The notes under the pieces: generated by a model
Seen by the model: only the letters and a program-made list of their open reading frames with translations
Told to the model about the DNA's origin: nothing
The model's database searches: none
Shown here: positions 27,713 to 57,315 of the stretch, piece by piece
Numbering within the stretch: the first letter of the stretch is position 1
Layout: each line of letters opens with the position of its first letter
Translations under genes and position numbers: made by a program
IMG/VR virus record: IMGVR_UViG_3300023276_000007
Location: 42,766 to 106,765 of that record
From: a virus
Strand: one strand, 5' to 3'
DNA length: 64,000 nt

Positions 27713-28252
27713 ATGGGAAAACCGATGTATCAGCTTGATGAAGACATTAGAAGGGTAGACCACAATAAGTGGCCAAAGCGCTTGGTGTGCGGAAATTACC
27801 TATCTTTAAAAAAGATGACCTTCCAAACTAGAGTAGTTGGATATAGGGCGGAGATTATTAGAGAGTCTGATGGTCAATGCCTAGCTAAACTATATAAGAA
27901 TGGAAAGATTACAGTTTTCCCTGGATACTACTGGGACGGGCCTAGTGGGCCTACTGTGGACACCGTGGCTTTTGTTATTGCTTCACTACCTCACGACATA
28001 TTTTATCAAATGCTGCGAGAAGACTTACTTATAGACGTAAGTAACTATGTAGCATTCCCAGAACCTTATTATGAAGAGTTTGAAAAAGTTAGAAGGTGGG
28101 CAGATGATACTATGCGTGAAGTTAACATAAAGAATGGTATGACTAAGTTTAGGGCGTATTATACATATAAATTTGTACGCTGGTATGGCGAAGAAAGTGC
28201 CTTATCACGGTATGTTAAAGACTACAATGAATATTGGATGAATCACGGTTAA
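27713..28252 (+). CDS. DUF1353-like protein
   Basis: PGYYWDGPS…ASLPHDIFYQ…WAD…YKFVRWYG motif set. Confidence 0.65.
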   Translation: MGKPMYQLDEDIRRVDHNKWPKRLVCGNYLSLKKMTFQTRVVGYRAEIIRESDGQCLAKLYKNGKITVFPGYYWDGPSGPTVDTVAFVIASLPHDIFYQMLREDLLIDVSNYVAFPEPYYEEFEKVRRWADDTMREVNIKNGMTKFRAYYTYKFVRWYGEESALSRYVKDYNEYWMNHG

Positions 28253-28262: not shown

Positions 28263-30425
28263 ATGGCACGACAACCTTTTGAGTATGGCCCCGATTGTGA
28301 TGGCCCTGATGTAGATATTAACATAATACCTACATCTTTCCCATTGTGTGATGAAGTCGTCTTTGAAGATCCTGACTTACTACCCACCTGCACCGACTTT
28401 GAGACTGTAGATTTTATAGTTCCCCCAGTCTGCCCATGTTTCCCTGAACGTATGGGTCTTACTGATAACTCGAATGCAAGTATTGCTTGTGGCGGGCCTC
28501 TACCTTCAATAACCTTTGATGCAGCTATCGTTAACGTAGCACCGGACGACTGCTGTGCTCCAGAGTTTAAGCTTGATATACAGTTAGATATACAAGTACC
28601 TTGTGTAGGTGCTGTCGGAGGCTGTGCCGCTATAGTTGGTCAAGTTGACATCAAAATTGATGAAGGTCCGCTTGGATGGTTCTTTGATTGGGAAAAATGT
28701 ATCGATGACCAAGGTAACATTATAAACGACCCCTGCTGTATTCGGCTAGTGGGTGAGATGTTTATACCTTGTATAGACGGTATAACATTTAAAGTTGAAC
28801 ATAATATCCAAGAGACCGGTGCAGTAGATATCCCTACCATCGAGGAGTTTACTATAGAAGCGTCTGATGACGTTCCATGTGAATACGATGTAGTATTCGA
28901 CATGCTAGTTCCTTTACCAGAGGACCCTACAATACCTATAAGCCCTACAGACCCAAATATACCACCCGGCCAGAACTGCTGTAATGGTGTAGGTTATTGT
29001 CCCGACGAAGGTACGTTTAGCGACCTAGGAAAAATGAAAACAGAGACTATTTCGGTCGTCACCAATATTACCTGTGATCTGGAAGGTAATTTAACTGTGG
29101 AGAGGACAGAACTTGAGTATGTTTGCGGGCTCCTTAAAGATTTCAGGATAGCTGGGAACGACGCGATTCCCTGCGCTGGGGCTCAGTCGTACAATGAGGA
29201 TTGCTGTCCAAGCACTACGACGACAGATCCGGACTACCCACCACCAACTACAGAGCCAGGTGAGGGCCCCTATGGCCCGTATATCCCGCCAGAAACCTGT
29301 CAGTGTCGGTGTGACAAATATTACGTGTGTGACAAAGAGACAGGGAAGACAATCCCAGACCTCTATGTTGAGGTTTACGACCTGTCCGGCGATGGTAGCT
29401 GTGCTTACCGTATTGTAGATGGTGACAGTGTAGACGAGAATAACAACGCGGTAATTATGCACGAAGGCCTAGGATGTCCAGACCCTGACGAAAATATATC
29501 TAACGGTTCTACTACGTGGGTTCTAGCGTGTGAACCCTGTAGTGATTGGCCGGATAACAGTACCACGACAACTACTACTACCACGACAACTACTACTACA
29601 CCGCCTATCATCATCGATGAGAAGTACTATTGCGTACAGATCGGTACCGGTGCTCCGAAGCAATGCGTTATCGGTGCAGCACTAGTTCCAGGATCACCAA
29701 TCTCAGCAGGACCTTTCGATAGTGCGTCTGAATGTGCAGCAAACTGTAATACAAACAGCTACGAGTATGAAGAGTGCCCTGCCTCGACAACAACCACAAC
29801 CACGACGACGACAACCACAACCACGACAACCACGACAACCGCGACAACCGCACCTCCTATGGCGGCGGCTTGTGGTACTGACAATGGTCACCCAACTATG
29901 CTAGTCACTATGACTTGGACAGGTGGCCCAGCTACTCGTGATTACATGGGATGTAATGACTGGGAGTCAGGCCAGCAGCGCGTCTTAAATGCCGATACCT
30001 ATGACCGGTACCAGAACACCATGGGTGGTTGCCTAGGTGAAGAAGGTGAATATTGGAGAAAGGGTGCAGACAGTGACGCATTTAACATGTCAGGTTTCGT
30101 AGATTTCTTCGGAGGATTTTTCTGGCAACTTAAGAATGAATATAACGGCGTTGGAGAATTGAACCATGGTACAGCAGCTATTGATGGTTACGTTTATGAT
30201 AGCCTCTCTGCGTTCTCACCAGGGCCAGGCGCGTTTTACCCTTTCGGTAACTCATTCCTAGACGGCCCTTTTGGTGGAAATACCGCCTTCCCTCCGCCGT
30301 CCACAGGCATGAGCGGGTGTTTAACCGGGGCATACCTCGGAGATCTTAAATCTGCACAGCTCAGCGGTAGCGTGACGTTCGCTAACGGTGTTACGGTGAC
30401 GTGGGAACAAGGAACAGGATGGTAA
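28263..30425 (+). CDS. Cys/Pro-rich fibre protein with two poly-Thr tracts and a C-terminal tip domain
   Basis: Dozens of Cys; Thr13 (29562-29600) and Thr18 (29787-29840); tip domain at 29859-30422. Confidence 0.7.
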   Translation: MARQPFEYGPDCDGPDVDINIIPTSFPLCDEVVFEDPDLLPTCTDFETVDFIVPPVCPCFPERMGLTDNSNASIACGGPLPSITFDAAIVNVAPDDCCAPEFKLDIQLDIQVPCVGAVGGCAAIVGQVDIKIDEGPLGWFFDWEKCIDDQGNIINDPCCIRLVGEMFIPCIDGITFKVEHNIQETGAVDIPTIEEFTIEASDDVPCEYDVVFDMLVPLPEDPTIPISPTDPNIPPGQNCCNGVGYCPDEGTFSDLGKMKTETISVVTNITCDLEGNLTVERTELEYVCGLLKDFRIAGNDAIPCAGAQSYNEDCCPSTTTTDPDYPPPTTEPGEGPYGPYIPPETCQCRCDKYYVCDKETGKTIPDLYVEVYDLSGDGSCAYRIVDGDSVDENNNAVIMHEGLGCPDPDENISNGSTTWVLACEPCSDWPDNSTTTTTTTTTTTTTPPIIIDEKYYCVQIGTGAPKQCVIGAALVPGSPISAGPFDSASECAANCNTNSYEYEECPASTTTTTTTTTTTTTTTTTTATTAPPMAAACGTDNGHPTMLVTMTWTGGPATRDYMGCNDWESGQQRVLNADTYDRYQNTMGGCLGEEGEYWRKGADSDAFNMSGFVDFFGGFFWQLKNEYNGVGELNHGTAAIDGYVYDSLSAFSPGPGAFYPFGNSFLDGPFGGNTAFPPPSTGMSGCLTGAYLGDLKSAQLSGSVTFANGVTVTWEQGTGW
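29562..29840 (+). repeat. Poly-Thr codon tracts (ACN)n
   Basis: ACCACGACAACTACTACT x2 at 29562-29597 and a mixed ACA/ACC/ACG run at 29787-29840. Confidence 0.9.
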
Positions 30426-30429
30426 ACTT

Positions 30430-31446
30430 ATGAGTAGCTTATTTTTTAAAGACGACCACGGTCAATTTATCAAACACGGCAACAAATGCTACACGAAGGT
30501 AGGTGCCTCTCAGGTTATGCCCGACGTTACAACAGCCCCGGATGGTGGGTCTTCTTTTGTTGATTGCGATGATTGCAACTCTGGTACTACGACCACTACT
30601 ACGACCACTACTACGACAGCCTTATCCGGGTTATCATTTGGGCAAACCAACACTCCTGCAGAAGGCGACCCAGAAAGTACAGTAGTTGGCGACTTAACAC
30701 CTACCGGCGGTACAGGCCCGTTCACGTATGCAATGAAAGCAGGGGCAGGTGATGGTGACAACGGTAGTTATAAGATTGTAGGATCACAGTTACAGTTAAG
30801 CGCGGCACCTAGTATCTCGGAACCGACCGACAGTATACGAGTAGAAGTTACCGATAGCCTAATGGCCACCTTTGACGACACCTTCTCAGTTGATGTATAC
30901 CCAACAACAGGATCTATGACCGTTGAACTAGCAGAAGGTTCACCGCTATACGACGACGCCTCTCCTGGTGAGGACGTAGGTGAAGTATCTGCAGGAACTA
31001 ACTTAGGCGACATAAACGCTGCCAATGGTAATCCATCCACACGACTAGTTTACGTATCAGGACCGGAAGTCTCCTTCTTAGGTAAGGACTGGAGTCCTAA
31101 CGATTACGGCGAGCTCTATACAGACGCAGTTCCGTATTCAGTGCCAGACCAGCACGAGTGGGGTAGTGATACACCTGCCAACCCTGGTTTGTATATGCAC
31201 GACTATCACGAAATGCCTTATGTAGGTGATTATGTGTCTCGGGTATCTTTCCGTATAGATGCAAGTAACCAATTAGACATTACTAACCAGACAACAGGTG
31301 GTACTATTGATAATAGCGTCGGCGTGACCTCTGGTAACGATCCAAACTTATTAGTACCAGATGGAACCATCGACACAGCCGCTTTTCAGGAAGTGACTTT
31401 TGCTAACGGACAAACCTGGAAGTGGCAACAGGAATCTGGATGGTAA
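30430..31446 (+). CDS. Poly-Thr + cadherin-like + half-cadherin + tip-domain protein
   Basis: Thr11 (30586-30618), cadherin-like VGDL…FTY…GAGDGDN…SIRVEVTD, orphan N-terminal cadherin strands at 30901-30993, tip ends VTFANGQTWKW. Confidence 0.7.
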   Translation: MSSLFFKDDHGQFIKHGNKCYTKVGASQVMPDVTTAPDGGSSFVDCDDCNSGTTTTTTTTTTTALSGLSFGQTNTPAEGDPESTVVGDLTPTGGTGPFTYAMKAGAGDGDNGSYKIVGSQLQLSAAPSISEPTDSIRVEVTDSLMATFDDTFSVDVYPTTGSMTVELAEGSPLYDDASPGEDVGEVSAGTNLGDINAANGNPSTRLVYVSGPEVSFLGKDWSPNDYGELYTDAVPYSVPDQHEWGSDTPANPGLYMHDYHEMPYVGDYVSRVSFRIDASNQLDITNQTTGGTIDNSVGVTSGNDPNLLVPDGTIDTAAFQEVTFANGQTWKWQQESGW

Positions 31447-31488
31447 GTATGTATAACTTAAAAACAATAAAACTATAGAGGAATTAAC

Positions 31489-32076
31489 ATGGCCATTACA
31501 TATACAATAGAAGCAGACCCTACCGCAGGCGGAAACGATGCGAATAACGCAGACTTTGACATAGAGAATCCAGACGTACTGGAGCTGTCCTCTAATGCAC
31601 CTTTAGCAGGCGGTAGTTATAAAGTTACAGTAAAAGCTGTTGATGGCGTATCTGGTGAGTTTGGCTATGGCTTCTTTACGGTAGTAATCAACCCTAGAAT
31701 CACAGCCCTAACACTGAATCAGACTAACGTACCTATCGTTGGCGATTCTGCAGGTACTCTTGTTGGTGACCTTCAAGTTACTGGCGGTACTGCTCCGTTC
31801 ACGTTTGCTTTAGTAGCAGGTGCAGGAGATGGAGATAACGGTAACTATCAAGTAAACGTTGCTGATATTGAAGTAAAGGCTGCGGCTGTCTTGACAGACC
31901 CAACTGACGCAATAAGAGTAGAAGTTACTGATGCGGCGGGTGACACGTTTGAGCAAGCACTCACAGTCAACGTACAACCAGTAACAGGAACTCTGACAGT
32001 TATATTGACTCTAGGATCTCCACTATTCGACGACGACAGTCCTACAACAGACGTCGGTACAGTAAGCGCGTCTTAA
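31489..32076 (+). CDS. Circularly split cadherin-like protein (candidate polymer subunit)
   Basis: Begins with the C-terminal portion of a cadherin domain, contains one full domain, and ends with the N-terminal strands of a domain; AT-rich leader and GAGGA SD. Confidence 0.7.
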   Translation: MAITYTIEADPTAGGNDANNADFDIENPDVLELSSNAPLAGGSYKVTVKAVDGVSGEFGYGFFTVVINPRITALTLNQTNVPIVGDSAGTLVGDLQVTGGTAPFTFALVAGAGDGDNGNYQVNVADIEVKAAAVLTDPTDAIRVEVTDAAGDTFEQALTVNVQPVTGTLTVILTLGSPLFDDDSPTTDVGTVSAS

Positions 32077-32101
32077 CCTAGCGCAGACAAAGGAAGCGTA
32101 A

Positions 32102-33946
32102 ATGGCTATAACATATACAATAGCAGCAGATCCAACGGCGTCGGGAAACGACGCCAATAACTTGGACTTTGAAATAGAGAACCCAGACGTACTGGAGTTA
32201 TCTGCTAACGCCCCTTTGACTGCCGCCACCTATAAGGTAACGGTAAAAGCCGTTGATGGTGTATCTGGTGAATTTGGCTACGGCTTCTTTGACGTAGTAA
32301 TCAACGCGGCTGTCACAGCGCTATCCCTTAATCAAACAAACACCCCTCAGGCGGGTGACCCAGTAGACACTTTAGTAGGTGACCTCCAAGTTACAGGGGG
32401 AACTGCTCCTTACACGTTTGCTTTAGTAGCAGGTGCTGGTGATGGTGACAACACACATTACCAAGTTGATGGTTCTAATATAGAGTTAAGTGCCTCTGGC
32501 GGCACAACAGCCGGAACTGATGCAATAAGAGTAGAAGTTACCGACGATAAAGGCTATACGTTTGAACAATCTTTAACTGTTAATATAGCCGTTGCTCCGA
32601 CCACGACCACTACGGCCGCCGCTACTACGGCACCTCCAGGACCACTAGCCTGTGGAACCCCTAATAGCGACCCTACTATGATCGTTACTATGTCCTGGAC
32701 GGATGTTGATGTAACCAAGAGTTACCTAGGGTGTACCTGGACTAATGGGGAAACTAAAGAATTATATACCACCTTCTATCAGGCAGTGGTTGGATCGCTG
32801 GAAACGTGGCGTAGAGATGCAGGACCAGACCCACAACTGTTTCATTTACACGGTAATGAATATTATCCGGGGACAGCCCCCTCCCTCTACGAAACCATAT
32901 TGGGAGGAGCTAGTATCGGCGTAGTATATCATACTAATTATAGACTTCAGATCTTTAAGGATTCAACTTTTACAGGATCCTCTGGCAATGTAGGAGTAAG
33001 TGCGTCCTCCCCGACAGCGGGTGCTCTAGTTACGGGTGCCCCTATAGCCCCAAGTCATAAAAGTGGTTCGGTCACTTTCACGAATGGCATCACCGTAAGT
33101 TGGGGGGAAGGTAACTTATGGCCACCACCGATTACGGATATAACCCTTAACCAGACTAATACACCGACAGAGGGTGACCCAGTAGCTACTTTGATTGGTG
33201 ACTTAACACCGACAGGTGGTACTGCATCATTTACGTATGCACTGGTAGCTGGTACCGGAGACACTGATAACTCTCATTACCAAATAACCGGCGCTAACCT
33301 AGAGTTAAGTGCCTCTGGTGGCTCAACATCCTTAACAGACTCAGTACGTATAGAAGTGACTGATGCGACTGGACGTAAATTCGAGAAGGCCTTTACTGTG
33401 ACAGTCGACCCCGTACCTATGGCAAGCCCTTGTTTACCAGACCTCGGACATCCGTCTATGCTAGTAACACTGTCCTGGACAGGAGGACCAGCCACTAGGA
33501 CATTCTTAGGGTGTACTGATTGGGCACCAGGACAACAGCGCGTAGTGAACGCAACTGGCTATAACTTAACTTACACGCCGACCACCGCAGTATCTGGCGT
33601 TAATTCTGCTGGATGGAATGCTGCCGGCGGTGGCGACGGCGACCTTATTAGATTCGGAGGGACTACCCTTCTAAGCTCATTCTCTAGTAGACAAGCTGGT
33701 AGCGTACGGTTTAACGGTATAGAGGGTGTCATCGGTGCCCCTGCCGACCCAACCTTCTCAATCTTTCGAGTTGACTTTAAATCCTTTACTGGCTACAACG
33801 GGAGCTTCAACAACTTAGTTACGGCAGGGTTCAGTCCTACTAAAACTAATGTCGGCGTAGGGGTACCTCTAGACGCCAGTAGAAAGAGCGGCTCAGTTAC
33901 CGATGTAAACGGTATTACGTATAGCTGGCAACCTAACGGCTGGTAG
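32102..33946 (+). CDS. Cadherin-like protein with Thr-rich linker and two tip domains
   Basis: First ~160 aa are paralogous to 31489..32076; two full cadherin-like domains; tip domains at ~32642-33121 and 33419-33943. Confidence 0.7.
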   Translation: MAITYTIAADPTASGNDANNLDFEIENPDVLELSANAPLTAATYKVTVKAVDGVSGEFGYGFFDVVINAAVTALSLNQTNTPQAGDPVDTLVGDLQVTGGTAPYTFALVAGAGDGDNTHYQVDGSNIELSASGGTTAGTDAIRVEVTDDKGYTFEQSLTVNIAVAPTTTTTAAATTAPPGPLACGTPNSDPTMIVTMSWTDVDVTKSYLGCTWTNGETKELYTTFYQAVVGSLETWRRDAGPDPQLFHLHGNEYYPGTAPSLYETILGGASIGVVYHTNYRLQIFKDSTFTGSSGNVGVSASSPTAGALVTGAPIAPSHKSGSVTFTNGITVSWGEGNLWPPPITDITLNQTNTPTEGDPVATLIGDLTPTGGTASFTYALVAGTGDTDNSHYQITGANLELSASGGSTSLTDSVRIEVTDATGRKFEKAFTVTVDPVPMASPCLPDLGHPSMLVTLSWTGGPATRTFLGCTDWAPGQQRVVNATGYNLTYTPTTAVSGVNSAGWNAAGGGDGDLIRFGGTTLLSSFSSRQAGSVRFNGIEGVIGAPADPTFSIFRVDFKSFTGYNGSFNNLVTAGFSPTKTNVGVGVPLDASRKSGSVTDVNGITYSWQPNGW

Positions 33947-33948
33947 TT

Positions 33949-34446
33949 ATGGATAATCACGGAGTGACGATACATCTCTACGGGTACCCATGCTCCGGTA
34001 AAACTACGATAGGTGGTTCGTTAGCTAAAGCATTAGGTAGAACTATAATCCTAGATGGCGACTATGTAAGAAAACATATAAGCAAAGACTTAGGATTTTC
34101 TAAGAAGGACCGTATAGAGAACGCCCGCAGAATAGGTAGCTATACCTCCCTATTAAACGACCAAGGGTTTAATGCGGTAGTATGTACAGTAGCTCCTCAT
34201 AAGAAGTGTCGAAGACTAATACGCGACCACGTCAAGTACTACACCTCTGTGTTTATAGACACACCTTTAAAGGATTGTATAATGCGTGACACTAAAGGTA
34301 TGTACAAGAAGGCTGTGTCCGGAGAGATACAAAATTTTACAGGAGTACATTCTTTTATAGATAGAGGTACACCCGACATCGTAGTAACACCTGGGCCAGT
34401 ACATCTTCAAGTCCAGTACATAATTTCACAATTGGCTGGAAATTAA
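33949..34446 (+). CDS. cysC: Adenylyl-sulfate (APS) kinase
   Basis: P-loop GYPCSGKTT, LDGDYVR, LGFSKKDRIENARRI, RDTKGMYKKA..GEIQNFTG. Confidence 0.93.
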   Translation: MDNHGVTIHLYGYPCSGKTTIGGSLAKALGRTIILDGDYVRKHISKDLGFSKKDRIENARRIGSYTSLLNDQGFNAVVCTVAPHKKCRRLIRDHVKYYTSVFIDTPLKDCIMRDTKGMYKKAVSGEIQNFTGVHSFIDRGTPDIVVTPGPVHLQVQYIISQLAGN

Positions 34447-34500
34447 GTACTAACTGTTTATACTAACTACACTAATACGAAAACAAAAAAGGTACTAACT

Positions 34501-35625
34501 ATGTTGAATATCGTAAGCGGTTGTCCTCGCTCTGGGACTAGTCTATTAATGAACGTCATGCTCTCCATCTTTGGTGAAAAAAACATTATGGGTGGTGGCA
34601 AGCCCAACCTTGACTTTGACTACGACGCTGAGCTTGCTAAGCTAAGCAACAGAGAACAGGCTATGGTTTGGTCTCAAGAGAGAGCCTTAGCTGCAAAAGG
34701 CCAGACGAGAGAAAAGAGGTTGGAGATACAAGCGAAAACTATGGATCTTAACCCCAACGGGTTCTTCGAGTGTCAGTACAGCGTTCAAGGTATTTCCTAT
34801 AACTACCCAGACCGCGAGCAACTTAAAAAGTATGTTAGCGACGGCGGGGATAAACTATGCATGAAAATAGTCTCCAGTGGTCTGCGGGTTAGTGACCCAA
34901 GGTTTATTGGGAAGGTAGTCTACCTTATAAGACATCCTAGGTCTGTAGCTAAAAGCCAAGAAAGGCTACGTACGCAGCTTGATATGCTTTTTGAATCAAA
35001 CCCTGGTTATGAGGATATGAAGCAAAAGATGGTTATACATTCCCCGCGTATGTATATCAACTCTACAAGAGCAGCTTCCGAGTTTTTCCTAGAGAATCCA
35101 GACATACCTGTTCATCCATTACACTACGACGAGCTCATTGCTACTCCTGAGAAAGTTATTAAAGACTTAGCGGGATTCTTGGGTAAGAACAAAAAAACCG
35201 TATGGTCTAAGGCTAAAGGTATCGTAGATCCTAAGTTAAAGAGAAGTTACCCTGAAGATATCGAAAGTGACCTATGGGAAGACGCAGAAGAGGTTTACCG
35301 ACTTTTTGATAAGCAAGACTACCAAGGCGTTGTCGACTACCTCAAGCCTATGCACAGAAACACTAATCAAGCAAACTCTAATTGGGTATGTGCACGTAAC
35401 GGTATTCTGACTAACAAGGCACAGTGTACAAACTGCATCAATAATGAAACCGTAAGAACCAACTTTAAAAAAGCAGCTAACGAGAAGAAGATTGATTGGC
35501 GTAATGAGCCTTGCCTCTTTGAGTGCGGTATGAACCTCTCCTTAGAAGACGATAAGGTACTTACCTTAGAAGAAAGCACCAAGAATAACTTCTGGAGAGC
35601 AGGTGCTGAAAGGCTGGTTAAATGA
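34501..35625 (+). CDS. PAPS-dependent sulfotransferase with Cys-rich C-terminal extension
   Basis: 5'-PSB IVSGCPRSGTSLLM, NPNGFFE, 3'-PB LIRHPRSVAKSQ, HYDELIATPEKVIKDLAGFLG. Confidence 0.88.
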   Translation: MLNIVSGCPRSGTSLLMNVMLSIFGEKNIMGGGKPNLDFDYDAELAKLSNREQAMVWSQERALAAKGQTREKRLEIQAKTMDLNPNGFFECQYSVQGISYNYPDREQLKKYVSDGGDKLCMKIVSSGLRVSDPRFIGKVVYLIRHPRSVAKSQERLRTQLDMLFESNPGYEDMKQKMVIHSPRMYINSTRAASEFFLENPDIPVHPLHYDELIATPEKVIKDLAGFLGKNKKTVWSKAKGIVDPKLKRSYPEDIESDLWEDAEEVYRLFDKQDYQGVVDYLKPMHRNTNQANSNWVCARNGILTNKAQCTNCINNETVRTNFKKAANEKKIDWRNEPCLFECGMNLSLEDDKVLTLEESTKNNFWRAGAERLVK

Positions 35626-36560
35626 ACAAACTAACCTGTATTCTAACCTTCTTAAATGAAGGTATAGAAGTCTTTAGGACGGTTAAAAGCATACGGGACA
35701 GTGTAGGGGATACTGTAGATATCTTATTGGTAGACGACTCCAGTACAGATGGGGTGCCCTATAAAGTTGTTGCCAACAAATTTAACTGTGACTATGTGAA
35801 GTCGGATACTCGACAAGGAGTGGCTGGCGCGAGAGATCTTGGAGTGTCTTTAGCTAAGACGCCATACTGTATACTCTTCGATGCCCACATGAGGTTCGAC
35901 AAAAGAAGTAATTGGGCAGAACGAGTTGTAGAAGAAATAGAAAATAACGACAGGCGTATTTACTGCACAACTTGTGTATCCTTGTGGTATCCGTTTATAG
36001 AGCAGTCCCAAAGTGTTACCCACCAAAGAAGCACAGGAGCTTACCTAGCGACATCTTTCAAGGATAGCCACACTAGCCTTGCGGCTAAGTGGATACCGCT
36101 CAAACTAACAGGCGTAGAACCAGTTCCTTTAGTTCTTGGGGCGACCTATGCCTTCTCTGTAGAGTACTACCGTGAGTTGCGAGGTTTAGCCGGCTTGAAG
36201 TATTATGGCAGTGACGAACCTTGGATATCCCTAAAGTCTTGGGCGATAGGTGATGGCTGCGCAGTTATAACAGATGTTAACATAGGCCACCTATTCCGAT
36301 CCAAGCACCCGTATCCAGCGTATGGACTAGACGCCCTCTATAATAAACTTTTTATGGCGGCTGTAGTTTTTCCTAAGAAGACTAAGTGGTTAGAGGACCT
36401 AATGAGGTTGGGCGGCCCAAAGGTAAGTAAGATGTTTAAAGAAAATGAAACTCAGTTTAGGGAAACAAGGTCTTGGTTTGCAGAAGTGGAGAAGCCCGGC
36501 TGGCGGGAGACATTCTCTCAATTGAATGGAGAATTTACTGAACAGGTAATTACGTTATGA
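35622..36560 (+). CDS. GT-A glycosyltransferase (GT2/GT27-like) resembling polypeptide GalNAc-transferases
   Basis: TFLNEG, RTVKSI, LLVDDSS, GVAGAR, DxH motif FDAH, YGSDEPWISLKSW, IGHLFRSKHPY. Confidence 0.85.
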   Translation: MNKLTCILTFLNEGIEVFRTVKSIRDSVGDTVDILLVDDSSTDGVPYKVVANKFNCDYVKSDTRQGVAGARDLGVSLAKTPYCILFDAHMRFDKRSNWAERVVEEIENNDRRIYCTTCVSLWYPFIEQSQSVTHQRSTGAYLATSFKDSHTSLAAKWIPLKLTGVEPVPLVLGATYAFSVEYYRELRGLAGLKYYGSDEPWISLKSWAIGDGCAVITDVNIGHLFRSKHPYPAYGLDALYNKLFMAAVVFPKKTKWLEDLMRLGGPKVSKMFKENETQFRETRSWFAEVEKPGWRETFSQLNGEFTEQVITL

Positions 36561-37252
36561 ATGAAGTCTACTTAGTAAGCAAACATACTTCCTACCGAAA
36601 TATGGGGCTAATGGAGCAAGAAACGTTACAGAGTGGTTTTGTAGCTGCCTTAGACGGTTATCTTGATGGACCTTTCTTAGAGTCTGGTGTAGTGCCTATG
36701 ATGCAGCTATACACACCCGAAAATGGGATACCTACGGAAGTTGTAGGAACTAACGTGGTCAGCCTTAGCTACTCTGGAAAGGTGCGGAACGCTTTAGATA
36801 AAATATTTAATTACTTCCCAGCAGACCAGGCCGTTGTGGTTAGAGTATTAGGCGCCGACCTTCTTGAAGAACTGACAGCAGATCCAGAGTTCTATGAGAT
36901 TATAGAGGAGTGGGTTAGCAGGGATCGGGGCGTTAGTGTCGTCTACGACGGAGCAGTTGCTTCCCCAAACCACTTGATACCTATCTATACATTTAAAGAT
37001 AAGAAACCTATCCGAAATGATGGTGGTGCGTATGCCTGCGACCTCGACTATCGATGTAAAGACTATAGCCGTAAGGATGAAAGCCATGTTTCCAGAGAAG
37101 TATATTTGAAGAGGTGGAATACTTGTATAGGCTGCCCTGCTATGAAGCAGAGCGGAAAGACCATGCAGTGCTCGCTATGCACCTGCGCAATGAAAATCAA
37201 AGCTAAATGGAAAAGTGCCACCTGCAGTGACAAGGCAAACCGTAAGTGGTAA
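36557..37252 (+). CDS. Hypothetical protein with C-terminal Cys-rich (DUF6171-like) domain
   Basis: RWNTCIGC…CSLCTC.MKIK…ATC…KW; ATGA-coupled to the glycosyltransferase. Confidence 0.55.
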   Translation: MNEVYLVSKHTSYRNMGLMEQETLQSGFVAALDGYLDGPFLESGVVPMMQLYTPENGIPTEVVGTNVVSLSYSGKVRNALDKIFNYFPADQAVVVRVLGADLLEELTADPEFYEIIEEWVSRDRGVSVVYDGAVASPNHLIPIYTFKDKKPIRNDGGAYACDLDYRCKDYSRKDESHVSREVYLKRWNTCIGCPAMKQSGKTMQCSLCTCAMKIKAKWKSATCSDKANRKW

Positions 37253-45232: not shown

Positions 45233-46402
45233 ATGGGAACACTAGAAGGAAGAGGCGCTTACCCAGCCCTATTGACGTTAGACGACATTATCTACGTTGA
45301 TAAGTTTGGTGGCGCAGTCACAGAAGACGGTTACATAACCCTTACACAACTACAAGCACTTTTAGATGCAACTCTGAAATCAGACACATCCTTAACAGGT
45401 AACGGTTACTTTAAAAACGATAGTTCGTTTGCAACCCCTGACGCATCGAAAGTACCGTCAGAACTTGCCGTAAAGGTTTATGTTGATGCAAACATAGCGG
45501 GAGTACCTGCCAAAGAGAACGCTCACGTAGCCACAGATACCTACTTAGACAATGTAGGTGTAGGCACTTGGACAAAAGCAGGAACTAAGGCTACAAAGAC
45601 TTTAACAGCCGGAAGCGTAGGTATACTCACTATAGATGGAATTGCTACAGTGTTAGGTGACAGAATTTACATCAAAAACGAAGATGGCTCGTCAACGAAC
45701 TTAACTGACGTTGACCAAGGTATGTATGATGTTACTACAGAAGGTACAGCCGGTGTAGCTGCTATTTTAACTAGGTCGGAGGACTTTAACGGAGATCCCG
45801 CCTCAGAAGTTAAAAATGGCGTATACGCTTATGTGACGTTAGGTACGCTTAATAGTAATTCAGGCTGGAGAGTATTAGCCGTAGGAACCGTCGATGTCGA
45901 TGTCGATCCTATGGTGATCACACAATTCCAGGGACTTCCTGGAAACCATGCCGCTTCTCATACTAACGGTACTGATGATATTCAAGATGCTACACTTGCT
46001 CAGAAAGGCTTAATGACAATAGCTCAAGCAACTAAGCTAGACACAGTTGAGCAGCGAGCCAATCACACAGGCACACAGCTAATGTCTACAGTTAGTGATG
46101 CAGGAGCTTTGGCTACACTAGATCAAGTAGATACTCCTGAGATAGTAGATCTAGCAGTAACAACCGCAAAGCTAGCGGATCTATCAGTAACCACACCAAA
46201 GATAGTTGATGATGCAGTCACTCCTGAAAAGAACTCTCAGTTCTCTGCTAACGGCGAGGAAGGGTCAACTCAGGCAATGGTCCCGTTTACAGCAGCTCCG
46301 ATTGTCCCTGTAGAGGGTACCTTTTGGTTCAGCGTGATCGGTGGGCTAACGTATATAAACTACCATATAAGTGGTGTAACAAAATCAGTGGAACTTAGCT
46401 AA
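45233..46402 (+). CDS. Fibre/decoration-like virion protein
   Basis: AVKVYVD, IDG…GDRIYIKN, RANHTGTQ and AVTTAKLAD-type repeats. Confidence 0.55.
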   Translation: MGTLEGRGAYPALLTLDDIIYVDKFGGAVTEDGYITLTQLQALLDATLKSDTSLTGNGYFKNDSSFATPDASKVPSELAVKVYVDANIAGVPAKENAHVATDTYLDNVGVGTWTKAGTKATKTLTAGSVGILTIDGIATVLGDRIYIKNEDGSSTNLTDVDQGMYDVTTEGTAGVAAILTRSEDFNGDPASEVKNGVYAYVTLGTLNSNSGWRVLAVGTVDVDVDPMVITQFQGLPGNHAASHTNGTDDIQDATLAQKGLMTIAQATKLDTVEQRANHTGTQLMSTVSDAGALATLDQVDTPEIVDLAVTTAKLADLSVTTPKIVDDAVTPEKNSQFSANGEEGSTQAMVPFTAAPIVPVEGTFWFSVIGGLTYINYHISGVTKSVELS

Positions 46403-47886
46403 TGCCTAACCTGCTAACAGTACCTCCTGGCTACCAACGTACGGTAGACCAGCTCTGGACGCCTCAGGCTATCCAGACAACATGGTGGCTTGATGCTGCA
46501 GATCCTAATACGATTATAGACTCAGGAGGAGCAGTCAGCCAATGGAATGATAAAAGCATCAAGCAAATTGATCTAACTCAAGGTACGGCATCAAAGCAGC
46601 CGACTACAGATGCTCGAACATTAGGCGGGTTAAATGTACTTGAGTTTGACGGTACAGACGTTTTCCAAACCAATCAATCAAAGCATGGGACAAGTTACTT
46701 AGTCGCCATAATGCTAGATTACGACTCGGGTAGTTCGGTTCTATCGGAGAGTAGTAGTGGTGGTAGTCAATCATTTACTATCGGTGACGCTGGAGTAACA
46801 TTGCAAGCAGACTCTAATATAGTATATAGTGGAGGATCTCTTAGCGGCCCTACACTATTGGTACTGAAAATCGACAGAGTGTTGAATGTAGCAACTATAT
46901 ATAGAAATGGAATTAGTGAAGGAACGTCCGCCCTTACTGCAGATGTCGGAGGTGGGGTAGCGGTTAGGATAGGGTCTAACTTTGTCGGTGGTATATCTTA
47001 TGATGGAGGATTGGGCGAGGTAGTATATTCTGATAATATAACAGATACAACGAGACAGCTACTAGAAGGGTACTTAGCTTGGAAATGGGGAACAACCCTT
47101 CCAGTAGGACATCCTTATGAATTTGCAAGACCTACAATGAATCCTATATGGACTCCGCATCACGTAGAGAAGTTAGGATGGTATGACCCTTCGGATATAT
47201 CTACTATTACAGATACAGCAGGTGCGGTGTCTCAGATAGACGATAAATCAGGTACTGAACATTTAGTTCAAGCGGTAGGTTCAAAGCAACCAACTACAGG
47301 TACTCGTACTATAAACGGTTTAAATGTATTAGACCACGATGGTGATGACTTCCTGGAGAAATTGTCTTTCACGCTACCTTCGAGTGGTGACGTTGCATTC
47401 TTTATGGTATGTGAAATAGATTCTGTAGATAATACTTTCGATTCCATATTCTCAGTGAATGGGACAACAGATTTCCAACTTGAAGCTCGTAGCCCTTCTC
47501 AGTTTTTAGGAGCACTGAAATCGACAGGACTAGGCGGTGGTATTATAAACTTTGTAGATGGTCCGTATGATGGCGCTGGCACAATTATAATGTGTGCGAT
47601 ATTCGATAAGACTAATAGTTTACGGTATGTGTTTTCTAATGGAGCAGAGCAAGGAAGTGACGTATATACTACTAAACTATCACCCACTACAATACTAAGC
47701 GCATTTACAAACCGTGCGGCTGACGCAAGTCCTAACGGTGCGATGGGCGAGTTTATTATCACTTCTAATGTTAGTGCTTATTCAAGACAAAAGATCGAAG
47801 GCTACTTAGCTTGGAAGTGGGGATCAGTAGAGTCCTTGCCAGTAGATCATCCCTATAAAACTGATGGGTCGCTTTTTGGCTATTAA
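46402..47886 (+). CDS. LamG/concanavalin-like protein, 2 modules
   Basis: Modules bounded by W.DA.D..TI…VSQ..DKS and EGYLAWKWG…LP..HPY. Confidence 0.7.
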   Translation: MPNLLTVPPGYQRTVDQLWTPQAIQTTWWLDAADPNTIIDSGGAVSQWNDKSIKQIDLTQGTASKQPTTDARTLGGLNVLEFDGTDVFQTNQSKHGTSYLVAIMLDYDSGSSVLSESSSGGSQSFTIGDAGVTLQADSNIVYSGGSLSGPTLLVLKIDRVLNVATIYRNGISEGTSALTADVGGGVAVRIGSNFVGGISYDGGLGEVVYSDNITDTTRQLLEGYLAWKWGTTLPVGHPYEFARPTMNPIWTPHHVEKLGWYDPSDISTITDTAGAVSQIDDKSGTEHLVQAVGSKQPTTGTRTINGLNVLDHDGDDFLEKLSFTLPSSGDVAFFMVCEIDSVDNTFDSIFSVNGTTDFQLEARSPSQFLGALKSTGLGGGIINFVDGPYDGAGTIIMCAIFDKTNSLRYVFSNGAEQGSDVYTTKLSPTTILSAFTNRAADASPNGAMGEFIITSNVSAYSRQKIEGYLAWKWGSVESLPVDHPYKTDGSLFGY

Positions 47887-47903
47887 CGATAACGGAGTAA
47901 CAA

Positions 47904-50093
47904 ATGAATAAAATGACAGTAAGTCCGTTTTGGACTCCTGAGTATATAGATACAGAGTTATGGCTTGATGCATCTGATACAGATACTATCACAGAAGCTG
48001 CCGGAGCTGTTAGTCAATGGAATGATAAAAGCGGAAATGATTGTCATGCAGTTCAAGCTTCTAGCATAAGTCAACCAATAACCAACTCACGCACATTAAA
48101 CGGTTTAAACGTCCTCGACTTTGATGGTAGCAATGATGATATGTCTATGGTAGCGGGGCCACAGCCTGATTCCGCACAGACAATCATGATAGCAGTAGTA
48201 GACTTGGATTCGCCATTGAAAGCAGAAGGACAACGATTGCTTAACTTCCAAGTAGGCGCGAGTTCACGGTGGTCGTTACGTCTTGAAGATGAGCTTCTTG
48301 CTCAGTATACCAACGCAGCTTCTTTTACTGGCCCCGAAATAGCCATAACATCAGGAGCAAGACTAATATCTGGCTATCGAGATGGTACGACAGTTGGGGT
48401 GAGTGTTAATGGCGGTGTGCCTGTTACAGATACAAGTGGAGGAAATGCTACAGTAGATACATGGAAGGTGGGTTCGTATGATTCAGCGAATGATTTCCTA
48501 GATGGAGGATTTGCCGAAGTTGTTGTTTTGAAATCATACACCTTAGAGACTCTCCAAAAACTAGAAGGTTACCTCGCTTGGAAGTGGGGAATACAAACTT
48601 CTTTACCACTAGATCACCCTTATCGTTTTAACGGAACACTATTTGGGTATGCTCTTACATATTGGACTCCTGCCGATATAACTACAGAAGCTTGGTATGA
48701 TGCAGTTGATTCAAGCACCATCACAGAATCAGGCGGAGAAGTTAGTCAGTGGGATGATAAAAGTGGTAATGGGAATCACATGGAACAAGGAACGGGATCT
48801 AAGCAACCTTTAACCAACTCGACAAACATAAACGGACTGAATACCATATCCTTCGACAAGACATCCTCTCAGTTAATGGAAACATCAAGCAACCCTTTCG
48901 GTGGAAGCGTTGTTGATGCTCATGTGTTTCAAGTTTTCAAAACAGCTTCTACCTTAGTAACTGGTACAAACTTTAGTTTAACAGGTAGTAGCAACGGTGG
49001 TAACAAATGGCAGGCTCTTGTTTGGGATGATACTAATTGTTACTTTGATACCGGTGGAATTAGTCCACCAAACCGACTCCAAACCAATAGTTGGGCTACA
49101 ACCAGTGAAGAAATTATGGGGTCTTTTTACGGTTCAGATACCGAAGAGGTGCAGGAAATCTGGAAGAATGGTACTCTCTCTGCGAGTGATGCCACAGGCC
49201 ACACAGTTAGTACAGTAGGTAACATGCAGATAGCTGTTCAAGGTACGATTAATCATCAAACATTTGAACTTGCTGAAATGGTTGTTGTCAATGGGACCAT
49301 GACTACTTCAGATAGGCAGAAGATGGAAGGATACCTCGCTTGGAAGTGGGGACTAGTTACCAAACTTCCTTCAGACCACCCTTACCGATTTGATGGAACA
49401 CTATTCGGATATGAGAAGTTTTGGTCACCGGAAGAGATAGTCACAGAAGCTTGGTACGACGCTTCTGATGCAAGCACCATTACAGAAGCAGGTGGATCTG
49501 TTAGTCAGATTGATGACAAGAGTGGAAATAATGTGCATGCTGTCCAAGCAGTTGGTGGAGATCAACCGTTGATAGTTGCGGGTGCTATGAATGGATTAGA
49601 TGCCCTTCATTTTGTAGGGAGAAATAATCACATGGATGGTAATAGCCTTATCGATTTTGACTGGGTTATAACTGTTATCCATTATCTCGCTACCCCTGCT
49701 TTTAGTCAAGCGTTAGGTAGCCAAACTCTCCCTAGGGTGGGATACACCATCCAGTACAGAGGAGATATCAACATTGATAGATGGAACTCTAGCCTGTACA
49801 CAAATGGTAACCCACTAAGCACTGTCGGAGCTACCCCGATAACCGTCGGTCCGACTATAGTTGGACGAGACTTACAAGGCTTGTCTAACTTCGCCCTACA
49901 ACTAGGTGGAGATCGTGGACTTCCCAATCGAGGCTGGGATGGATACATAGGTGAGGTTATCTACGGTAATCAGACTCTCGATACAGCCACAAGACAACTA
50001 CTAGAAGGTTACCTTGCATGGAAGTGGGGAACACAAACTTCCCTACCAGTAGGTCATCCTTACAAAACTGATGGAAGTCTCTTCGGTTATTAA
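47904..50093 (+). CDS. LamG/concanavalin-like protein, 3 modules
   Basis: Same module three times; ends HPYKTDGSLFGY, identical to the upstream gene. Confidence 0.7.
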   Translation: MNKMTVSPFWTPEYIDTELWLDASDTDTITEAAGAVSQWNDKSGNDCHAVQASSISQPITNSRTLNGLNVLDFDGSNDDMSMVAGPQPDSAQTIMIAVVDLDSPLKAEGQRLLNFQVGASSRWSLRLEDELLAQYTNAASFTGPEIAITSGARLISGYRDGTTVGVSVNGGVPVTDTSGGNATVDTWKVGSYDSANDFLDGGFAEVVVLKSYTLETLQKLEGYLAWKWGIQTSLPLDHPYRFNGTLFGYALTYWTPADITTEAWYDAVDSSTITESGGEVSQWDDKSGNGNHMEQGTGSKQPLTNSTNINGLNTISFDKTSSQLMETSSNPFGGSVVDAHVFQVFKTASTLVTGTNFSLTGSSNGGNKWQALVWDDTNCYFDTGGISPPNRLQTNSWATTSEEIMGSFYGSDTEEVQEIWKNGTLSASDATGHTVSTVGNMQIAVQGTINHQTFELAEMVVVNGTMTTSDRQKMEGYLAWKWGLVTKLPSDHPYRFDGTLFGYEKFWSPEEIVTEAWYDASDASTITEAGGSVSQIDDKSGNNVHAVQAVGGDQPLIVAGAMNGLDALHFVGRNNHMDGNSLIDFDWVITVIHYLATPAFSQALGSQTLPRVGYTIQYRGDINIDRWNSSLYTNGNPLSTVGATPITVGPTIVGRDLQGLSNFALQLGGDRGLPNRGWDGYIGEVIYGNQTLDTATRQLLEGYLAWKWGTQTSLPVGHPYKTDGSLFGY

Positions 50094-56439: not shown

Positions 56440-56858
56440 TGCAATACGCTACACGTAGCGGTAGGGAGCCTAGAGAGCAGATCGACATGGCCGACGTGCC
56501 TACTGGTTATCTAAGCAAGCTTAGTGAAGTACGGCGTTTGCTAGATAAAATAGCCAGGAAGTTCCCAGAGCTCCCTGTGGTAGGTTTGGAGATTGTAAGT
56601 CAGACCGTAGCTCCATGCCCAAGAACTCTTGGGTTCTCTGCCTTGGGTGGTGGTAAGATAATGATTACCGACCTGTGTTTTGAGGCCGGTGAACTCACCA
56701 GCACCGTGCTACACGAAGTATGCCATGCACTCTTCTCTGTTAAGCACGTAGAGCACTGTATCCTAATGTGCCCAACTATAGGTGCACCTCAAGAAGAAGG
56801 TGCGCTATGGGCCGTGTTCGAAAAATATGCATTAAACTACATTAACAATAATAAATAA
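56439..56858 (+). CDS. Zinc metallopeptidase-like (zincin) protein
   Basis: HEVCHALFSVKH followed by a CILM Met-turn-like motif. Confidence 0.55.
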   Translation: MQYATRSGREPREQIDMADVPTGYLSKLSEVRRLLDKIARKFPELPVVGLEIVSQTVAPCPRTLGFSALGGGKIMITDLCFEAGELTSTVLHEVCHALFSVKHVEHCILMCPTIGAPQEEGALWAVFEKYALNYINNNK

Positions 56859-56868
56859 AGGAAGTACC

Positions 56869-57255
56869 ATGAGTAAATTATACAAAAGAGCAGCAAGAAT
56901 AAAGTTACGGTTCGAGTCAGCACGCGGGCTAGTCACCACAGAGGACTTGTTTAACTTACCTCTTGAGGAGCTGGACATCATTGCTAGAACTTATAGCAAG
57001 AAGACTAAAGAGTCTAAAGAAGAAAGCTTCATTAAGCCAGTCAAGACGGACGCTACTTCTGTCTTCAAGCTTAGCCTTGATATCGTTAAAGATGTCATTG
57101 CAGACAAGCTAGCTGCTAGAGATGCTGCACAGAAAGCTGCCGCAACTAAGATTAAGAAAGCTAAGATACTTGGTATCATGGCTGATAAGGAAAATGATGA
57201 GCTCAAAGGTAAGGACCTTGACGAGCTTAAAGAAATGCTCGACGAGCTTAGCTAA
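56869..57255 (+). CDS. Conserved phage coiled-coil protein
   Basis: KLRFESARGLVTTEDLFNLPL motif, which I recall usually accompanies the 54400-type gene. Confidence 0.6.
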   Translation: MSKLYKRAARIKLRFESARGLVTTEDLFNLPLEELDIIARTYSKKTKESKEESFIKPVKTDATSVFKLSLDIVKDVIADKLAARDAAQKAAATKIKKAKILGIMADKENDELKGKDLDELKEMLDELS

Positions 57256-57261
57256 GTTATT

Positions 57262-57291
57262 GGTGGGAGGCTTAGGCTTCCCGCCTTTTTT
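57262..57291 (+). terminator. Rho-independent terminator
   Basis: GGTGGGAGG-CTTAGG-CTTCCCGCC (two G-U pairs) followed by T6. Confidence 0.85.
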
Positions 57292-57315
57292 ACAATTATA
57301 ATAAAGGAGATGACC

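Follow-up and report, generated by a model that had tools for sequence, protein, structure and literature searches.

The window analysed here, a 64,000-nucleotide stretch of a 106,765-bp viral contig from a large uncultured phage, carries four putative tail-fibre genes directly followed on the same (+) strand by four enzyme-side genes, which encode an APS kinase, a sulfotransferase (ST), a GT-A glycosyltransferase (GT) and a Cys-domain ORF (Table 1). The APS kinase gene starts 2 nt past fibre gene 4, and the subsequent spacings are 54, -4 and -4 nt, with the Cys-domain ORF overlapping the GT stop codon. Upstream, a gap of 10 nt separates the tail-assembly-chaperone-like gene from fibre gene 1. 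The cassette enzymes contain no membrane segments, and their genes form a close-packed, partly overlapping series with the fibre genes. The first-pass annotation had described a cassette of cysC, sulfotransferase, glycosyltransferase and Cys-domain genes beginning 2 nt past the last fibre gene, and both the ORFs and their spacing agree with that description. For one neighbouring structural protein, the nearest named phages infect cyanobacteria and other aquatic bacteria.

Table 1. Genes and threonine tracts of the fibre and enzyme region (window coordinates).
Feature	Position	Strand	Description
Tail-assembly-chaperone-like gene (context)	27713..28252	+	phrog_1158 tail assembly chaperone, E 3e-13
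Fibre gene 1, 720 aa	28263..30425	+	Cys-rich N-terminal part, Thr13, Thr18, C-terminal distal domain
Thr13 tract, fibre gene 1 aa 434-446, then Pro-Pro	29562..29600	+	mixed ACC/ACG/ACA/ACT codons
Thr18 tract, fibre gene 1 aa 509-526, then ATTAPP	29787..29840	+	linker before distal domain
Fibre gene 2, 338 aa	30430..31446	+	Thr11, Ig/cadherin-like module, DD-like C-terminus
Thr11 tract, fibre gene 2 aa 53-63	30586-30618	+	
Fibre gene 3, 195 aa	31489..32076	+	Ig/cadherin-like modules; without Thr tract
Fibre gene 4, 614 aa	32102..33946	+	modules, PTTTTTAAATTAPP, DD copy 1, modules, DD copy 2
PTTTTTAAATTAPP tract, fibre gene 4 aa 166-179	32597-32638	+	
APS kinase, CysC-type, 165 aa	33949..34446	+	PF01583 APS_kinase, E 6e-38
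PAPS-type sulfotransferase, 374 aa, C-terminal Cys4 domain aa ~290-374	34501..35625	+	Pfam Sulfotransfer_3 / Sulfotransfer_1
GT27-like GT-A glycosyltransferase, 312 aa	35622..36560	+	Pfam Glycos_transf_2, E 1e-15
Cys-domain ORF (c45), 231 aa	36557..37252	+	rare N-terminal domain + DUF6171-like Cys-rich C-terminal domain

Threonine tracts in the putative fibre genes

The label 'fibre' derives from position and architecture, because the genes lie downstream of a gp6-like baseplate wedge gene, with the tail-assembly-chaperone-like gene immediately preceding them, and because homologous domains close the tail modules of other phages. Fibre gene 1 has a mini-domain of ~60 aa between its Thr13 and Thr18-ATTAPP tracts and finishes with a distal domain (DD; aa ~536-720, ending ...VTVTWEQGTGW) that is common to viral loci L034-36, L039, L046, L049 and L054. 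Fibre gene 3 gave weak Big_13, FlgD_ig and SprB matches, and the start of fibre gene 4 is 75% identical to it.

A scan of the ORFs of at least 100 aa, about 120 in the contig, located runs of at least five Thr only in fibre genes 1, 2 and 4. All of the tracts listed in the first-pass annotation (Thr13, Thr18, Thr11 and PTTTTTAAATTAPP) were recovered in these three genes, with Pro-Pro following Thr13 and ATTAPP following Thr18. Since the tracts are written in mixed ACN codons, they are under selection at the protein level and do not stem from one slipped triplet. As a chance control, we defined an S/T tract as a window with at least 10 Ser or Thr in 12 residues. None of 227 ORFs from unrelated viral loci contained such a window, and in a complete 341-kb phage 4 of 372 ORFs did, one of them just before that phage's ST.

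Enzymes encoded behind the fibre genes

The APS kinase scored 130.6 bits against PF01583, for which the curated cut-off is 21.1, and its alignment with the best PDB match (5cb6, E 1e-27) has identical P-loop, LDGD-VR and DLGFS-DR-N-RR motifs. Judged by its sequence, this product is a true APS kinase that converts APS to PAPS. No ATP sulfurylase was detected in the contig, which is 57% complete, so that APS would have to be supplied by the host; PAPS reductase was not found in the contig either. In the window and in three other loci (L038, L046 and L049), cysC adjoins the ST gene, which suggests that the ST uses locally made PAPS.

Pfam matches of the ST to Sulfotransfer_3 and Sulfotransfer_1 (E 9e-8 and 2e-6; families PF00685/PF13469) score 33 and 27.8 bits, above the cut-offs of 27 and 22. 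An alignment with 38 relatives revealed conservation of the GCPRSGTS and RHPRxVAKSQE motifs and of C297, C309, C312 and C338. The predicted structure (pLDDT 84.6) adopts a sulfotransferase fold, with Z scores of 13.3-11.6 to CurM, OLS and tyrosylprotein sulfotransferases (TPST); residues 1-271 gave 13.3 to 4gbm and 12.3 to 5wrj. In alignment and model alike, the product thus displays the fold, the 5'-phosphosulfate loop and the 3'-phosphate motif that define a PAPS-dependent sulfotransferase. The modelled fold does not resolve the substrate class: TPST (Z 12.3-11.6) is tied with CurM, Stf9, StaL and 3-OST, all of these scores falling within about 2 Z units, and no TPST acceptor motif was identified.

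The first-pass annotation had proposed that the GT resembles polypeptide GalNAc-transferases (ppGalNAc-Ts) and had suggested a profile comparison of GT27 with GT2. When the GT profile was compared with the PDB, the best 16 matches were all GT27 ppGalNAc-Ts (E 1e-25 to 3e-12), spanning the whole catalytic domain, whereas the next family matched the first 88 residues only. The proposed identities of all three enzymes are thus upheld by Pfam, PDB profile and fold matches. D39, R71, D87-x-H89, E199, H223 and R226 are invariant in the GT and 16 relatives. In the alignment, D87-A-H89, H223 and R226 correspond to the GT27 ligands, a GHxFR motif is present, and the residues that bind metal and UDP are conserved. 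The region of the Gal/GalNAc-T motif (WGGENxExSxRxW) aligns as YGSDEPWISLKSW, in which E199, S203, K205 and W207 do not vary; the W-G-G-E-N stretch, however, is not conserved. No Pfam match to a lectin domain was obtained, and no 19-mer exceeded 1.24 on the Kyte-Doolittle scale, as looked for in a membrane anchor. By these comparisons, the GT is a GT27-like enzyme predicted to have neither lectin domain nor anchor. The Cys-domain ORF matched no Pfam family; its only match was to phrog_13558, in the Cys-rich C-terminal part.

Recurrence of the enzyme families at other loci

Relatives of the GT immediately adjoin poly-Thr/Ser ORFs at three of about nine distinct loci (L030, L032 and L010), compared with a background of ~0.9% of ORFs (binomial p ~4e-4). 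They lie near such ORFs at L013 and L031, and no S/T tract was detected within 10 kb of the relatives at L007-L009, L012 and L014. L030 combines poly-Thr fibres with a GT and a following Cys-ORF, and has no cysC or ST. Among cellular genomes, the GT domain was found in 80 loci, almost all from Bacteroidales, together with a CefB-like radical SAM (rSAM) maturase, a PCAT exporter and GG-leader precursor peptides, of which 23 of 45 carry Thr/Pro/Ser-rich tracts, mostly in a C-terminal tail. The presence of the domain in RiPP clusters with Thr/Pro-tailed peptides points to peptide acceptors. Because its relatives adjoin both poly-Thr/Ser proteins in phage-like contigs and these RiPP precursors, a peptide-Thr acceptor is likely for the phage GT as well. 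The 106.8-kb contig contains neither an rSAM gene nor a GG-leader small ORF, which leaves the fibres as the only Thr-rich acceptor candidates.

In 16 of 21 viral contigs (families c3/c4), the ST homologue comes immediately after the final distal fibre or RBP-like gene, and in most of the remaining contigs it lies next to S/T-tract ORFs, in tape-measure-type and baseplate-wedge-type tail modules alike. Counted over all families, 20 of the 21 contigs have the ST behind distal fibre genes. An S/T-tract ORF is the immediate neighbour at 4 of about 17 distinct loci (p ~2e-4), and the fibres at about 11 of the 17 lack long S/T runs. Only six of the 21 contigs encode an APS kinase alongside the ST, and only one has a strong match to the window's GT family; near-complete ST genomes carry other GTs elsewhere.

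These counts, and the occurrence of the GT at L030 without sulfation genes, argue against the enzymes forming one obligatory unit. Co-occurrence of the trio with poly-Thr genes, which the first-pass annotation had put forward as a check, holds for the GT and ST families taken singly, each of which recurs beside poly-Thr/Ser or distal fibre genes, but not for the trio as a fixed set. The opposite pattern, which that annotation had named as evidence against its proposal, was a trio commonly found away from Thr-rich neighbours; this did not appear in its strong form, although the ST often lies by fibres without long S/T runs. What survives of its central idea, modification of the fibres by the phage itself, is the link at independent loci between the enzymes and S/T-tract fibre proteins, but not the order of glycan followed by sulfate. 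Given that the trio is not fixed, an O-glycan made first and then sulfated becomes one option among several. Given the single GT match among the ST contigs and the scarcity of S/T runs in most ST-associated fibres, the sulfate acceptor need not be the glycan added by the GT.

Discussion

Our findings tip modestly in favour of a phage that modifies its own distal tail-fibre proteins with these enzymes. Starting from the observed enzyme families, motifs, gene order and recurrence, we infer the chemical steps and their benefit as follows. The four genes behind the fibres, which probably share a transcript with the fibre genes, would encode a kit that works in the cytoplasm before assembly. The GT27-like GT, possibly together with the co-conserved Cys-ORF, would transfer a sugar from a nucleotide sugar to hydroxyls of the poly-Thr linkers, which appear to sit between fibre modules and distal, presumably receptor-binding, domains. 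The APS kinase would convert host-made APS to PAPS, with which the ST would sulfate the fibres, either on the new O-glycan or directly on protein hydroxyls. The likely outcome would be stiff, extended, protease-resistant and negatively charged linkers, or an altered binding surface. Counting against this reading, the place of the enzymes beside fibre genes could come down to the variable accessory region that ends tail modules. The more specific version, in which a minimal lectin-less ppGalNAc-T relative, a fibre-dedicated ST and the phage's own APS kinase furnish the poly-Thr linkers with a sulfated O-glycan of the mucin type, is conceivable, but we regard it as doubtful.

The two transferases could instead work independently, the GT on poly-Thr linkers and the ST on Ser, Thr or Tyr of the distal domain or on S/T tracts, with no glycan needed. 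This would suit an ST that mostly follows distal fibre genes without the window's GT family, a GT module that lacks sulfation genes at L030, and the complete genome G004, in which the ST lies next to a poly-Ser gene and neither a GT2-type gene nor an APS kinase is present. TPSTs are among the best fold matches, but so, at equal rank, are polyketide, glycopeptide and heparan sulfotransferases; the additional GTs of near-complete ST genomes keep a glycan acceptor available, and to our knowledge no dedicated bacterial or phage enzyme for direct Ser/Thr O-sulfation has been described. We consider such independence unlikely. Remodelling of the host surface, in which a receptor glycan or envelope component is glycosylated and/or sulfated against superinfection or against the sticking of progeny to debris, is less probable again. 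Under this explanation the enzymes would adjoin receptor-binding genes through co-evolution with receptor specificity, as might be expected of an ST that tracks the distal fibre gene in many types of tail module, and phage GT2-type enzymes commonly bear host-takeover or moron annotations (phrog_3692). However, the enzymes have no membrane segments and no flippase or polymerase partners, the cellular relatives of the GT belong to peptide clusters and not to polysaccharide loci, and the recurrent poly-Thr/Ser neighbours would be left without a reason.

A role in metabolism, with the APS kinase boosting host sulfur assimilation and the ST and GT tailoring a metabolite or secreted peptide, seems very unlikely to us. 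In its favour, the kinase is of the usual assimilatory kind, the natural-product enzymes CurM, OLS, StaL and Teg12 are among the best ST fold matches, and RiPP clusters harbour the GT's relatives. Yet genes for a precursor peptide, an rSAM enzyme, an exporter or biosynthesis are absent from the contig, as are PAPS reductase and ATP sulfurylase, and a fixed place behind fibre genes across unrelated phages would be unexpected for general metabolism. Hypermodification of phage DNA bases by a P-loop kinase and transferases is scarcely credible: the kinase does match the 5-hmdU DNA kinase weakly (PF18748, E 0.085), but it matches APS kinase with all motifs and a far lower E value, the GT is GT27-like and not of the DNA glucosyltransferase type, and the genes sit in a tail module.

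Phage particles are usually regarded as unmodified protein. We traced one established exception, virion glycosylation in mycobacteriophages Che8 and Rita (Freeman et al., 2023, Cell Host Microbe 31:1216, as cited in PMC11256854), which alters antibody recognition. Like that system, modification of the fibres in our phage would employ phage-encoded cytoplasmic GTs and the virus's own structural proteins as acceptors. The mycobacteriophage acceptors are capsid proteins (PMC11256854). The tail tube is reportedly glycosylated as well. In those phages the GT genes are located close to the right end of the genome, and sulfation is not known to be involved; in the window, by contrast, the candidate acceptors are poly-Thr fibre linkers, the GT is GT27-like, and PAPS supply and a sulfotransferase are attached.

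With eukaryotic GT27 enzymes of the CAZy classification (e.g. PDB 2d7i, 6e4r, 2ffu and 8uhv, the last a Toxoplasma polypeptide GalNAc-transferase; PMC11074326), the phage GT shares the GT-A domain, motif order, DxH and distal His metal ligands, GHxFR, Arg/Glu of the Gal/GalNAc-T motif region and predicted Thr/Pro-rich acceptors. It differs in its low identity (~25%), in YG(S/C)DE in place of WGGEN, in the absence of a ricin-type lectin domain or type II anchor, and in being predicted to be cytoplasmic instead of Golgi-lumenal. Its closest cellular relatives, at 30-42% identity, are the GTs of Bacteroidales RiPP clusters with neighbouring Thr/Pro-tailed peptides; clusters of rSAM, LanC-like and GT genes have been listed bioinformatically and are uncharacterised (PMC10352776). 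Those GTs carry a second, fused GT2 domain and in many cases a LanC-like domain too, whereas the phage GT is single-domain and stand-alone, and their partners (radical SAM maturase, GG-leader precursors and PCAT exporter) are absent from the phage contig. The ST resembles the CurM/OLS ST domains, TPST1/2, Stf9, StaL/Teg12 and heparan 3-OST in fold (Z 13.3-10.5, residues 1-271) and in 5'-PSB and 3'-PB type motifs, no named subfamily being clearly closest. It departs from all of them in its extra C-terminal Cys4 domain and, as a family, in its fixed place behind distal tail-fibre genes.

Comparison with other phages points to decoration of the phage's own fibres by these enzymes, which would be a kind of virion modification so far undescribed, and our literature search found no paper describing such a phage fibre glycosylation/sulfation system. 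If the version with a sulfated mucin-type glycan were true, it would be the first case of a sulfated phage virion and a prokaryotic-virus counterpart of mucin biosynthesis. With the ST family present in many large phages that have not been cultured, and a GT27-like enzyme tied to poly-Thr tracts, receptor-binding fibres bearing charged coats of glycan or sulfate would be widespread. Such coats would matter for host range, for resistance to proteases and the environment, for adhesion to mucus or to matrices of polysaccharide, and for the way in which phage fibres are best produced in structural studies or for therapy. As a simple and soluble enzyme, the GT would be a useful model for mucin-type O-glycosylation. 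Its clade would represent a family of bacterial peptide-Thr O-glycosyltransferases that has so far gone unrecognised in RiPP pathways, and thereby a lead to the function of the uncharacterised Bacteroidales RiPP-cluster glycosyltransferase.

Genomic Setting of the Enzyme Cassette

A single IMG/VR virus record of 106,765 bp, with a CheckV completeness of 57%, ends in the 64-kb window, and all long ORFs lie on the + strand. Four ORFs at 28263-33946, regarded as putative fibre genes from their position and architecture, precede a cassette encoding an APS kinase (CysC), a sulfotransferase (ST), a GT27-like glycosyltransferase (GT) and a Cys-domain ORF (c45). Downstream from the last fibre gene, the successive gene spacings are 2, 54, -4, and -4 nt. 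None of the four cassette proteins has a membrane segment. Since promoter and terminator scans yielded signals no higher than background, operon boundaries could not be called. Neither a megablast search with the whole cassette nor tblastn searches with GT and ST detected any match among 50,697 named-phage records.

Coordinates of features in the window and in related loci (L numbers, fetched loci of relatives; G003 and G004, larger viral contigs or genomes)
Feature	Position	Strand	Remark
gp6-like baseplate wedge gene	13918-15582	+	
Tail-assembly-chaperone-like gene	27713-28252	+	directly upstream of the fibre/enzyme region
APS kinase	33949-34446	+	PF01583 and PDB 5cb6 matches; signature motifs all aligned
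PAPS-type sulfotransferase (ST)	34501-35625	+	both Pfam families above cut-offs
GT27-like glycosyltransferase (GT)	35622-36560	+	GT2 by Pfam; GT27-like by PDB profile matches
Cys-ORF c45	36557-37252	+	overlaps GT stop codon
Virion structural protein	47904-50093	+	neighbour of the cassette region
G003 six tandem paralogues	55,982-62,076 (L135:10982-17076)		no Pfam match
G004 poly-Ser gene and ST locus	L137:1-1817 with L154 end		
c40 ORFs	L038:2771-3448; L039:15585-16082; L048:10998-11522		
Bacteroidales-type RiPP cluster examples	L060:1616-8691; L077:7260-16542; L001:9245-13286		

Threonine Tracts of the Fibre Proteins

The four fibre ORFs are modular, with repeated Ig/cadherin-like modules. 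One copy of a distal domain (DD) of about 185 aa is present in each of 28263-30425 and 30430-31446, and two copies are present in 32102-33946; every copy terminates in a ...(V/I)T(V/Y)xWxxGxGW motif. Thr18-ATTAPP and PTTTTTAAATTAPP stand immediately before DD copies, a mini-domain of about 60 aa is flanked by Thr13-PP on one side and Thr18 on the other, and Thr11 lies ahead of the first Ig-like module in the second fibre gene. The Thr runs serve as linkers in these proteins. Runs of at least five Thr occur in the contig only in the fibre genes, where the tracts are encoded by all four ACN codons. A sequence search of PDB with the fibre proteins returned zero matches. Because the DD AlphaFold model was poor (pLDDT 59, with residues 93-176 below 50) and a full structural search against 48,161 chains gave no match at Z >=5, we assigned the domain no fold.

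The 195-aa product of 31489-32076 shares 75% identity with the N-terminal 162 residues of the protein encoded immediately downstream (32102-33946), and Ig/cadherin-like modules are shared among three genes of the set, which looks like the outcome of recent duplication and shuffling. The N-terminal 430 residues of the first fibre protein (28263-29560) contain most of its 40 cysteines; relatives of this region were undetectable in Pfam, PHROGs, and PDB.

Identity of the Cassette Enzymes

The first-pass annotation had likened the glycosyltransferase to polypeptide GalNAc-transferases, and a comparison of GT27 with GT2 bore this out. In a single-sequence search of PDB, ppGalNAc-Ts filled the best 15 matches; with a 16-member profile, the best 16 matches were GT27 enzymes (E 1e-25 to 3e-12) covering profile positions 5-284, the 16th being the Toxoplasma enzyme 8uhv (PMC11074326). 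TagF, the next family, aligned to the first 88 positions only. Invariant residues of the GT are D39, R71, D87-x-H89, E199, H223, and R226; both a lectin domain and a membrane anchor are absent.

For the ST, 286 relatives were retrieved at E <= 0.001, and GCPRSGTS, RHPRxVAKSQE, and a C-terminal Cys4 module were kept in 38 aligned relatives. Its AlphaFold model (pLDDT 84.6) has a sulfotransferase fold across residues 1-271, with Z scores of 13.3 to the CurM ST, 13.0 to the olefin synthase ST, 12.3-11.6 to TPST1/2, and about 11 to Stf9, StaL/Teg12, and heparan 3-OST. No substrate class could be read from this comparison of the predicted fold. Residues ~290-374 form a conserved module with invariant C297, C309, C312, and C338 and an EPCxFEC motif, over which none of the fold matches extends; it is probably a zinc-binding domain.

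The last ~70 residues of c45 belong to a widespread DUF6171-like Cys domain. A profile search with c45 found about six full-length representative clusters, its own included, and a word-index search found no close relatives. Kinship between its tail and the Cys4 tail of the ST was rejected (hhalign probability 0.7%). Structural leads to STAS/sulfate-permease domains were likewise discarded (model pLDDT 0.49, TM 0.3-0.35).

Both Transferase Families Neighbor Ser/Thr Tracts and Distal Fibre Genes

Single-protein scans of viral contigs detected no relatives, and alignment-based searches were required; one metagenome scan yielded just four loci. On L030, an 11-kb metagenome contig lacking cysC and ST, the order is a poly-Thr ORF, a second poly-Thr ORF (Thr18), a GT with 52% identity to that of the window, and a c45 homologue. 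The GT of L032 lies amid ORFs rich in Ser/Thr runs, and the gene immediately upstream of GT in L010 has a 56-residue S/T tract. L013 and L031 are weaker cases, and tracts are absent from L007-9, L012, and L014.

ST neighbourhoods were compared by clustering the ORFs of 21 viral contigs carrying this family. ST lies directly 3′ of the last DD-type fibre gene (cluster c3) in L034, L035, L036, L039, L046, L049, L054, and the window; in L037, L040, L042, L045, L047, L050, L051, and L053 it immediately follows a gene of another fibre-like family (c4). Because the genes upstream of the ST-linked fibres are of tape-measure type in L034 and L046 and of baseplate-wedge type in L047, the linkage spans tail architectures. 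Long poly-Ser/Thr ORFs adjoin ST in L037, L039, L041, L043/44, and L052. In G004, a complete 341-kb genome, S/T tracts are found in just 4 of 372 ORFs, one of which ends 19 nt before ST.

An S/T-tract ORF is immediately adjacent in 3 of ~9 GT loci (binomial p ~4e-4) and in 4 of ~17 distinct ST loci (p ~2e-4) against a background rate of ~0.9% of ORFs, p values that are rough because the loci are partly dependent. In unrelated viral loci serving as a control, 0 of 227 ORFs reached 10 Ser/Thr in 12 residues.

Each transferase family is linked to distal fibre genes and S/T tracts, but GT and ST are not linked to each other: a strong GT-family match was present on one of the 21 ST contigs (G003), where GT, cysC, and ST are dispersed, and GT2-type genes of any kind on five. 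Among the nearest homologues, the sole hint of GT and ST occurring together is that both have longest contigs of 65,577 and 14,143 bp. APS kinase occurs anywhere on the contig in 6/21 and is the immediate neighbour of ST in L038, L046, and L049 as well as in the window. The window combines two modules, one of poly-Thr fibres, GT, and c45, as in L030, and one of fibre, (cysC), and ST, as in L046 and L049.

GT Relatives in Bacteroidales RiPP Clusters

In cells, the GT family is found almost only in Bacteroidales (80 loci), where its domain is frequently joined in one polypeptide with another GT2 domain and a LanC-like one. The conserved cluster encodes a CefB-like radical SAM/SPASM maturase (NF038107, E 4e-47), a PCAT exporter, HlyD, and precursors of ~100 aa with a ...LRGGF double-glycine leader and a Cys-repeat core. 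Among 45 GG-leader precursor peptides from 39 loci, 23 bear Thr/Pro/Ser-rich tracts, mostly C-terminal, e.g., TPPITTTTTTTTPSP or TTPTTPTTPT. Six IMG/VR "viral" contigs (L001-6) carry the same type of cluster, and rSAM, LanC, and glycosyltransferase clusters of Bacteroidales have been listed as uncharacterised RiPP loci (PMC10352776). A ~970-aa protein of no known kind is also encoded in these clusters (L055-L134, L001-L006). Given the S/T-tract neighbours in phage-like loci and the Thr/Pro-tailed RiPP precursors, a peptide-Thr acceptor is the simplest interpretation across the GT clade as a whole.

Proposed Modification of the Phage's Own Fibres

Because GT and ST both show this association with distal fibre genes and with S/T tracts, we consider modification of its own fibres by the phage the best explanation, with somewhat better than even confidence. 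Both an rSAM gene and a GG-leader peptide are absent from the phage contig, for which reason a RiPP reading of the window was rejected, and the fibres are its only Thr-rich candidate acceptors. If the phage does modify its fibres, the GT would with moderate likelihood glycosylate their Thr linkers, and the ST would likely sulfate the fibres. The first-pass annotation had envisaged O-glycosylation followed by sulfation of poly-Thr stalks, with the glycan as sulfate acceptor; protein hydroxyls could also serve.

The main rival to self-modification, in which the cassette remodels the host receptor, is improbable given the soluble enzymes, the location of GT relatives in peptide clusters, and the S/T-tract neighbours of the enzymes. 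A role in general sulfur metabolism is unlikely; the 57% complete contig yielded no ATP sulfurylase or CysD/PAPS reductase. DNA modification is also unlikely and was rejected on the identity of the kinase, an APS kinase by PF01583 (E 6e-38) and PDB 5cb6 (E 1e-27).

Mycobacteriophages are an established case of virions glycosylated by GTs that the phage itself encodes (Freeman et al., 2023, as cited in PMC11256854). Our literature search found no paper on fibre-linked phage sulfotransferases, a GT27-like phage enzyme, or virion sulfation, nor a description of a viral AMG sulfotransferase and cysC system.

Additional Observations

The poly-Ser gene of G004 seemingly spans the record ends (340,107-341,434 and 3-1817) and stops just before ST; besides it, only two of the 372 ORFs have S/T tracts. 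In G003, a 202-kb viral contig, six tandem paralogous ORFs of ~313-343 aa lie directly 3′ of the APS kinase gene, and the GT27-like gene is located 3 kb beyond them, beside a weak "phage cement protein" match. Three viral contigs unrelated to one another carry, 3′ of ST or cysC, a family of small Cys-containing, mostly helical ORFs (c40) that is missing from the window.

At 45233-50093, the window has three paralogous genes in a row for virion structural proteins (phrog_10356/phrog_11772). The nearest named relatives of the last product are ~28-38% identical and come from Synechococcus, Pseudanabaena, Rheinheimera, and Erythrobacter phages. In ON014754.1, the stretch matching this gene sits under a feature labelled "botulinum neurotoxin type A", which is probably an annotation error, since other phage records label the same family "virion structural protein" or "hypothetical protein".
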